64,000 bases of DNA from Escherichia coli (lineage in GTDB: Bacteria; Pseudomonadota; Gammaproteobacteria; Enterobacterales; Enterobacteriaceae), in assembly GCF_045037415.1 (NCBI RefSeq), contig NZ_CP173438.1. One strand, given 5' to 3'. Both the position numbers and the translations under genes were made by a program. Within the stretch, counting starts at the first letter, position 1, and every line of letters begins with the position of its first letter. Under the pieces are notes generated by a model. The model made no database searches. It was not told the DNA's origin and saw only the letters and a program-made list of their open reading frames with translations. Of this stretch, positions 32,540 through 32,848 are shown piece after piece.

Positions 32540-32551
32540 AAGTATGTACAC

Positions 32552-32570
32552 GGGCAGCACGACGCTGCCC
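32552..32570 (+). terminator. terminator-like hairpin after dapD
   Basis: gggcagc acgac gctgccc perfect 7-bp stem; weak U tract after. Confidence 0.5.
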
Positions 32571-32848
32571 GATTGCTTTCTGGCTCAGAATAATTCGTCC
32601 TACTCATTTTCCCCCTTTTTTAAATACGTTTTCATCTTGTTTCGGACTGTCATGTAATTCGCAAAATGAAGATAAATGTGCTAATCCATCCCATGGAATA
32701 TCATCACAATAAAGCAGGTAATTTTTTGATTTTTACGCCATGATAGAAGTCTGGAAGAAAAAGGCTTTCTGCGATCACAGTCGAGCCGGGCGGGCCAGGC
32801 CAAATGCTAAAATAAGCACAATTTACTGACTCATTTTGAGGTAACGCT

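Follow-up and report, generated by a model that had tools for sequence, protein, structure and literature searches.

The 309-bp spacer that separates dapD from yaeH in this E. coli genome is very probably the short allele of an old polymorphism with several forms, produced by the independent loss of yaeI and of a neighboring 236-codon open reading frame (hereafter referred to as orf236). The order of events that I infer begins with the replacement of a whole compact spacer of ∼110 bp by a cassette, in Escherichia and, in scattered cases, in a few other genera. This cassette would have brought a dapD terminator of another kind, the genes yaeI and orf236, and 119 bp of new sequence upstream of yaeH. 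In the K-12 type, orf236 would subsequently have been deleted and yaeI retained; in the type described here, yaeI and almost all of orf236 would have been lost, in an event that would predate the diversification of E. coli. What would then be left in the short allele is the terminator, some 100 bp of AT-rich and largely unidentifiable sequence, 16 decaying codons of orf236, and an intact yaeH upstream region.

The sequence under study lies in a stretch of 64,000 nucleotides (hereafter referred to as the window), and the genes flanking it and their order are those of K-12 MG1655. The coding sequences around the spacer are placed as follows:

29012–31684, plus strand: glnD, from the list of open reading frames.
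31715–32539, plus strand: dapD, 274 aa, left flank of the gap; open reading frame, annotated as dapD in genomes identical over the queried stretch.
32849–33235, plus strand: yaeH, 128 aa, DUF3461, right flank of the gap; open reading frame matching Pfam PF11944 (E = 2.4e-55), annotated as yaeH in genomes identical over the queried stretch.
33289–34464, minus strand: cdaR, from the list of open reading frames.
34601–36025, minus strand: degP, from the list of open reading frames.

The gap spans positions 32540–32848, exactly 309 bp, and these coordinates bear out the original prediction that no gene lies between the dapD stop and the yaeH start. The open reading frames touching it are all short (one of 119 aa that overlaps the end of dapD in another frame, and others of 40, 47 and 59 aa on the minus strand), and were judged spurious. 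Positions 31700–33300 (1601 bp) are 100% identical to many complete E. coli genomes, SK1144 for example, and RefSeq has nothing annotated in the gap of the genomes identical over this interval. Several of these genomes and clinical isolates are ones that I take to be ST131.

In K-12 MG1655 (b0166-b0164-b0163), dapD (185123–185947) and yaeH (183709–184095) are 1027 bp apart, not 309, and yaeI (b0164; 184257–185069) lies between them and encodes 270 aa, in agreement with the gene of about that size and the interval of about 1 kb that the original prediction gave for this strain. The dapD sequences of the window and K-12 are 97.0% identical at the DNA level, and blastn shows collinear homology over window positions 29000–32574 (97.6%) and 32699–35909 (95.9%). 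Between these breakpoints, 124 bp of the window (32575–32698) stand opposite 842 bp of K-12 (NC_000913 184246–185087), a block that holds the coding sequence of yaeI with a further 18 and 11 bp beside it; the alignment therefore indicates a replacement rather than a clean deletion. Outside the block, the putative dapD terminator hairpin and the 119 bp upstream of yaeH are identical in the two strains, whereas the remnant of orf236 is shorter in K-12. As for yaeI itself, a tblastn search of the whole window with K-12 YaeI, a query that scores 531 bits on NCBIfam NF008460 and is hence valid, gave a best E-value of 2.5, and the lack of a yaeI-like gene that had been proposed for this lineage is upheld. 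Within the gap, the following features were located:

32551–32571, plus strand: putative dapD terminator hairpin of the cassette type, CGGGCAGC-loop-GCTGCCCG, from a terminator scan.
32575–32698, no strand assigned: allele-specific 124 bp in place of the K-12 yaeI block, from the blastn breakpoints.
32575–32594, plus strand: putative remnant of the yaeI leader and start, from a weak match in permissive blastn.
32595–32675, no strand assigned: AT-rich stretch of ∼81 bp, 35% G+C, with no match found in alignment searches.
32679–32729, plus strand: orf236 pseudogene remnant, last 16 codons plus stop codon, from blastx and alignments.
32730–32848, plus strand: yaeH upstream region, 119 bp, common to all cassette-type loci, from identity comparisons.
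32805–32813, plus strand: candidate extended −10 element, TGCTAAAAT, as I read the sequence.
32838–32841, plus strand: GAGG ribosome-binding site, from motif coordinates.

The convergent spacer between yaeH and cdaR (33236–33288), just 3′ of yaeH, is a second replaced intergenic region. It is 53 bp long in the window, in GF43 (see below) and in E. albertii, with one hairpin (GGGCCGGG...CCCGGC), whereas in K-12 it is 88 bp long, of unrelated sequence, and possesses another hairpin. Both lengths are recurrent among E. coli contigs.

The distribution of the two alleles was determined in 5426 complete E. coli genomes, 5424 of which possess the locus. The 124-bp segment, used as a marker for the short allele, is present in 3338 of the 5426 (61.5%), in single copy and at 90–100% identity with small indels. 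yaeI is found in 2084 genomes by megablast and in 2085 by a sensitive blastn search for distant matches (80–100% identity). Together, the 3338 and 2085 genomes account for 5423 of the 5424 that bear the locus, and any overlap is at most negligible. Distant blastn identified no yaeI-like DNA anywhere in the short-allele genomes, a DNA-level result that holds down to roughly 65–70% identity; within that sensitivity, these strains therefore have no copy of the gene elsewhere. The short-allele strains include O157:H7, O104:H4, O121 and ATCC 25922, while those with yaeI include K-12, BL21 derivatives, O111:H8 and O145:H28; each allele is presumably represented in several phylogroups. In a pan-genome study, yaeI was among the orthologous groups enriched in phylogroup A (PMC5422975). 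It resembles other accessory genes of the E. coli pan-genome in being chromosomal and at a fixed site, but a repeat scan found no mobile-element signature in the window gap. From the mosaic patterns described below, the alleles appear to have been exchanged through their conserved flanks. In strain 1506 (NZ_CP059288.1; H71/H151), yaeI is interrupted by IS1.

A single one of the 5426 genomes, that of E. coli GF43 (NZ_CP172127.1), carries orf236 intact and has the full form of the locus, annotated as dapD-yaeI-hypothetical-yaeH. The same arrangement is found in Escherichia sp. MOD1-EC7003, where a 1.7-kb interval contains yaeI followed by the 236-aa frame, in some E. albertii (CP117570), in Pseudocitrobacter cyperus, and in a record labelled Salmonella enterica (GCA_033043295.1). 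A contig resembling Enterobacter sp. kpr-6 possesses orf236 only, and Superficieibacter electus has yaeI only, with a remnant of orf236. The yaeI form is also that of E. albertii NBRC 107761, E. whittamii and strain SCPM-O-B-8794, and Escherichia sp. E1V33 has the short form. Full, orf236-only and yaeI-only loci all possess the cassette-type terminator and yaeH upstream region. In the full cassettes of GF43, E. albertii CP117570 and MOD1-EC7003, collinearity with the window extends to the terminator, the end of orf236 and the region upstream of yaeH. These cassettes have both genes intact, whereas the window has no yaeI and only 16 codons of orf236, with a stop codon. Copies of orf236 are located as follows:

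3515–4225 of locus L083: orf236 of GF43.
2672–3382 of locus L014: orf236.
4001–4708 of locus L095: orf236.
4001–4735 of locus L097: orf236.
4001–4738 of locus L098: orf236.

Two of the records named above deserve comment. SCPM-O-B-8794 (NZ_JAATUR010000035.1) is titled E. coli, but its dapD and cdaR are 94.3% and 89.9% identical to those of the window; these values resemble those of the other non-coli Escherichia species, and the genome probably belongs to a cryptic clade. As for the record labelled Salmonella enterica (locus L102), its dapD is at most ∼90% identical to that of any locus fetched, which makes the species label uncertain, and an IS110-family transposase lies between yaeH and cdaR (L102 5314–6300).

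The evidence that the short allele once contained orf236 comes from the right-hand part of the gap, where positions 140–309 are 94.7% identical to GF43. The remnant, which is interrupted by an in-frame TAA at 32682–32684, reads C*SIPWNIITIKQVIF* (asterisks denote stop codons), where the family has CEPVPWGIA(K/R)IKQVIF*. It sits immediately before the cassette-type yaeH leader, in the position that the end of orf236 occupies in GF43, E. albertii, P. cyperus and the kpr-6-like Enterobacter. The EPVPW motif is invariant or nearly so across 13 members of the orf236 family, and is kept even in relatives of 33–39% identity, indicating that it belongs to the protein and not to captured or older spacer. 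A search for an intact frame of ∼236 codons in the gap recovered the 16 codons only, with no open reading frame of at least 30 aa in that frame beyond 32657; with its in-frame TAA, this is a pseudogene fragment and not a gene. All eight differences from the intact GF43 gene are changes from G/C to A/T, one of which creates the stop codon, a pattern as expected of neutral decay.

The last codons of orf236 run into AATAAAGCAGGTAATTTTTTGA, which is present in both K-12 and the window. Homology to orf236 starts at query position 675 in short-allele genomes, versus 695 in those of the K-12 type, so that the window has kept ∼20 bp more of the gene. The short allele can therefore not derive from the K-12 form, and the comparison of these remnants indicates that the two alleles are independent derivatives of a locus that contained orf236. 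The question of deletion here or gain in K-12, which the original prediction had left undecided, can also be answered: because a decayed 3′ piece of orf236, the gene downstream of yaeI in the full locus, is retained in the window, the difference is a loss here and not a gain in K-12.

The spacer between yaeI and yaeH in K-12 (NC_000913.3 ∼184200–184256; locus L001 ∼3200–3257) contains an apparent in-frame fusion of the first 3–4 and the last 9 codons of orf236 (GTG AAT TTT ATC ACC AGA ATA AAG CAG GTA ATT TTT TGA), an unannotated gene scar whose junction is common to E. albertii NBRC 107761 and E. whittamii. Strain BS-04 (NZ_CP172819.1, locus L100), in which 38 of the 124 bp were matched, was considered as an intermediate allele, but proved to have the short allele with a 297-bp gap (2396–2692) and an extra deletion of ∼12 bp in the orf236 remnant. 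The latter may reflect decay that is still under way, or an error in a homopolymer or in the assembly.

One genome per species was scanned with YaeH, yielding 80 loci (E. fergusonii and typical Salmonella are not among them). In ∼70 species outside Escherichia, from genera including Citrobacter, Klebsiella, Enterobacter, Raoultella, Kluyvera, Cedecea, Kosakonia and Atlantibacter, the gap between dapD and yaeH is ∼110–126 bp, without yaeI. Three larger gaps (183, 650 and 2591 bp) also lack the gene, and two of the loci stop short of dapD. The compact spacers of the 11 species compared are mutually well conserved, sharing a terminator, AAAAAGCGGG..CCCGCTTTTTTT, and the motif TTTTTCGTTAATTATTCA, and, the ribosome-binding site excepted, are unrelated to the Escherichia sequence. 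The compact spacer is like that of the window in having no gene between dapD and yaeH, but differs from it in length (∼110 versus 309 bp), in its dapD terminator and in the conserved sequence upstream of yaeH (TTTTTCGTTAATTATTCA...). Since the two are unrelated, the gene-free state of the window is secondary and not primitive. Seen against most other Enterobacteriaceae, the yaeI-orf236 cassette as a whole has the appearance of an acquisition. The compact spacer (loci L003, L016, L017 and L024, among others) is highly conserved over at least nine genera (…TGGC…AAA…TTTTTCGTTAATTATTCAATAGTTAT…), suggesting that it holds a regulatory element for yaeH that was replaced wholesale in Escherichia.

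Within Escherichia, K-12, E. albertii and E. whittamii have one yaeI-only junction in common. Between the window and Escherichia sp. E1V33, identity is 94% for the short allele, including its 124-bp segment, and 93.5% for dapD. All three forms seem, from these comparisons, either to predate the species boundaries within the genus or to have crossed them. The loss of yaeI is ancient and the majority state of E. coli, not specific to one lineage, with the provision that its age is judged from sequence divergence and from sharing between species, both of which recombination can mimic.

The left end of the gap is also of the cassette type. The hairpin at 32551–32571 has eight pairs, seven of them G-C, and is the sole match in a terminator and promoter scan of the gap. 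It recurs in all loci of the cassette type (K-12, GF43, E. albertii, P. cyperus and the kpr-6-like Enterobacter), while the genera with a compact spacer have a different one. The T-tract that follows it is interrupted, reading ATTGCTTTCT (6 T in 10) versus ATTTTTTTG in K-12. In permissive blastn, the left-hand match to E. albertii extends over gap positions 9–55 at 83–85% identity, most of the score coming from the hairpin; by eye, ∼11 of 15 bases of 32575–32594 match the yaeI leader, a weak similarity.

The origin of the allele-specific DNA was sought in several ways. When the 124 bp were aligned locally to either strand of the GF43 and MOD1-EC7003 cassettes, the scores were no higher than those of shuffled sequences, and a chain alignment to the cassette variants that tolerates long deletions was not significant, with 15 of 300 and 92 of 300 shuffles scoring as high. 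A blastx search against 21 relatives of orf236 and five added proteins (four YaeI variants and the MOD1-EC7003 orf236) recovered the C-terminal remnant only. No second copy of the middle 96 bp was found by distant blastn in the 5426 E. coli genomes, the segment being in single copy in each carrier, and the repeat scan for mobile elements (IS, MITE or integron cassette) gave no convincing repeats flanking the 124 bp. Among the RNA families of Rfam 15, the only match for a small or cis-regulatory RNA is sroE, at 22.7 bits against a gathering threshold of 51, over the terminator hairpin, with no match within 32595–32675. A 25-codon frame starting at ATG 32666 was rejected as a gene, as it has no Shine-Dalgarno sequence and its start is ACG in Escherichia sp. 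E1V33. MAFFT global alignment scattered the 124 bp across yaeI, a placement taken as an artefact.

As the 81 bp at 32595–32675 have no match in the cassette variants obtained, a simple deletion cannot explain the whole allele; several deletions followed by decay, filler DNA, or the import of an unsampled variant must be assumed. The 81 bp may accordingly be remnants decayed past recognition, filler, or a piece of such a variant.

Could the locus have arisen otherwise? That the gap is an assembly or sequencing artefact is scarcely credible, as the same sequence occurs in 3338 complete, independently finished genomes. A recent deletion of yaeI in the clone or phylogroup of this strain (B2/ST131-like) would fit the complete identity of its 1601 bp to many clinical isolates that I take to be ST131, but is extremely unlikely given that the junction is shared, at 92–100% identity, by O157:H7, O104:H4, O121 and ATCC 25922 among those 3338 genomes, and, at 94% identity, by a different Escherichia species (E1V33). 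Another alternative is the opposite polarity, with a short spacer ancestral in E. coli and yaeI inserted in the lineage leading to K-12 (phylogroup A). The gene is absent from 61.5% of E. coli genomes and from nearly all other sampled Enterobacteriaceae, is enriched in phylogroup A (PMC5422975), and has a sporadic taxonomy, the next-closest named homologues of YaeI including Verrucomicrobia metagenome genomes. However, the short allele holds a decayed piece of orf236, larger than what K-12 retains, and conservation of its C-terminal motif in distant homologues identifies that piece as coming from a gene and not from older spacer. E. albertii and E. whittamii, moreover, carry yaeI with the K-12 junction, and the short allele is wholly cassette-type sequence, not compact spacer. 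I therefore regard an insertion towards K-12 as very unlikely.

The alternative that comes closest to the preferred reading differs from it in the mechanism of loss only, and agrees that yaeI and orf236 were lost. It proposes a one-step replacement of the middle of the locus, by filler DNA or through recombination with a very divergent variant that escaped sampling, the 81 bp being the remains of this import. In its favor, the orf236 classes within Escherichia differ to saturation, and for 81–96 bp of the allele no similarity was detected to yaeI or to the orf236 classes. The locus is demonstrably a mosaic: orf236 of GF43 and MOD1-EC7003 are close (dS 0.12) but their yaeI are far apart (dS 1.0), and in the record labelled Salmonella enterica yaeI is nearest to the Escherichia versions, while orf236 is nearest to that of P. 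cyperus. On the other hand, no donor sequence was found for the segment, which is single-copy and confined to the short allele, and the adjoining remnant shows the pattern to be expected of slow decay in place. I consider a one-step replacement rather unlikely beside deletions in place.

YaeI is a metallophosphoesterase with a Tat signal (PF00149 Metallophos, NCBIfam NF008460), and an annotation tying it to lipid A biosynthesis is repeated in one paper (PMC7414163). Its dN/dS of 0.09–0.17 indicates that the gene is functional where it is kept. Between K-12 and GF43 its dS is 0.74, against 0.15–0.18 for the flanking genes, a contrast that differences in codon bias may inflate. orf236 has no domain match in Pfam, NCBIfam or PADLOC, and only 21 relatives were found among 5.8 billion proteins. 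The alleles within Escherichia have diverged to saturation (dN ∼0.33), with dN/dS ∼0.1. The family members (∼235–245 aa) possess invariant Cys/His positions (T-C-S-x-C and H-x(3)-C-H) in addition to EPVPW near the C-terminus, and in every Enterobacteriaceae locus examined orf236 lies beside yaeI or at the dapD-yaeH site. A broader proposal is that the locus is a long-lived polymorphism whose forms (full, yaeI-only, orf-only, both lost) occur across Escherichia species, pass between genera by way of the conserved flanks and are kept by selection rather than drift, orf236 being a fast-diversifying partner of the periplasmic phosphodiesterase YaeI and the 81 bp possibly coming from an unsampled orf236 class. 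Taken as a whole, this proposal appears unlikely.

The 119 bp upstream of yaeH are 100% identical to K-12, 98–99% identical in E. whittamii, Escherichia sp. E1V33 and SCPM-O-B-8794, 93% in E. albertii and MOD1-EC7003, and 76–82% in the cassettes of other genera. For comparison, dapD of the Escherichia lineages compared is 91–94% identical to that of the window, and ∼94% in the three whose upstream region is 98–99% identical. This conservation suggests that the region carries control elements of yaeH; a scan for two sigma-70 hexamers found no promoter. As the 119 bp are unchanged, expression of yaeH is probably unaffected in the short allele, and the only expected consequence is the lack of the YaeI enzyme.

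Variation in the presence of yaeI has been described before. What is added here is its polarity, a secondary loss from a two-gene cassette, and the observation that the remnant of an unannotated 236-aa gene sits in the annotated intergenic DNA of both K-12 and the window strain. With yaeI absent from ∼61% of complete E. coli genomes, it is an accessory gene, which corrects an expectation centred on K-12, and its absence here is uninformative about the strain. The locus also illustrates, within a short interval, how species can share alleles and how recombination can make a mosaic of them. The unusual conservation of the 119 bp upstream of yaeH could reflect strong constraint, a recent sweep, or gene conversion.
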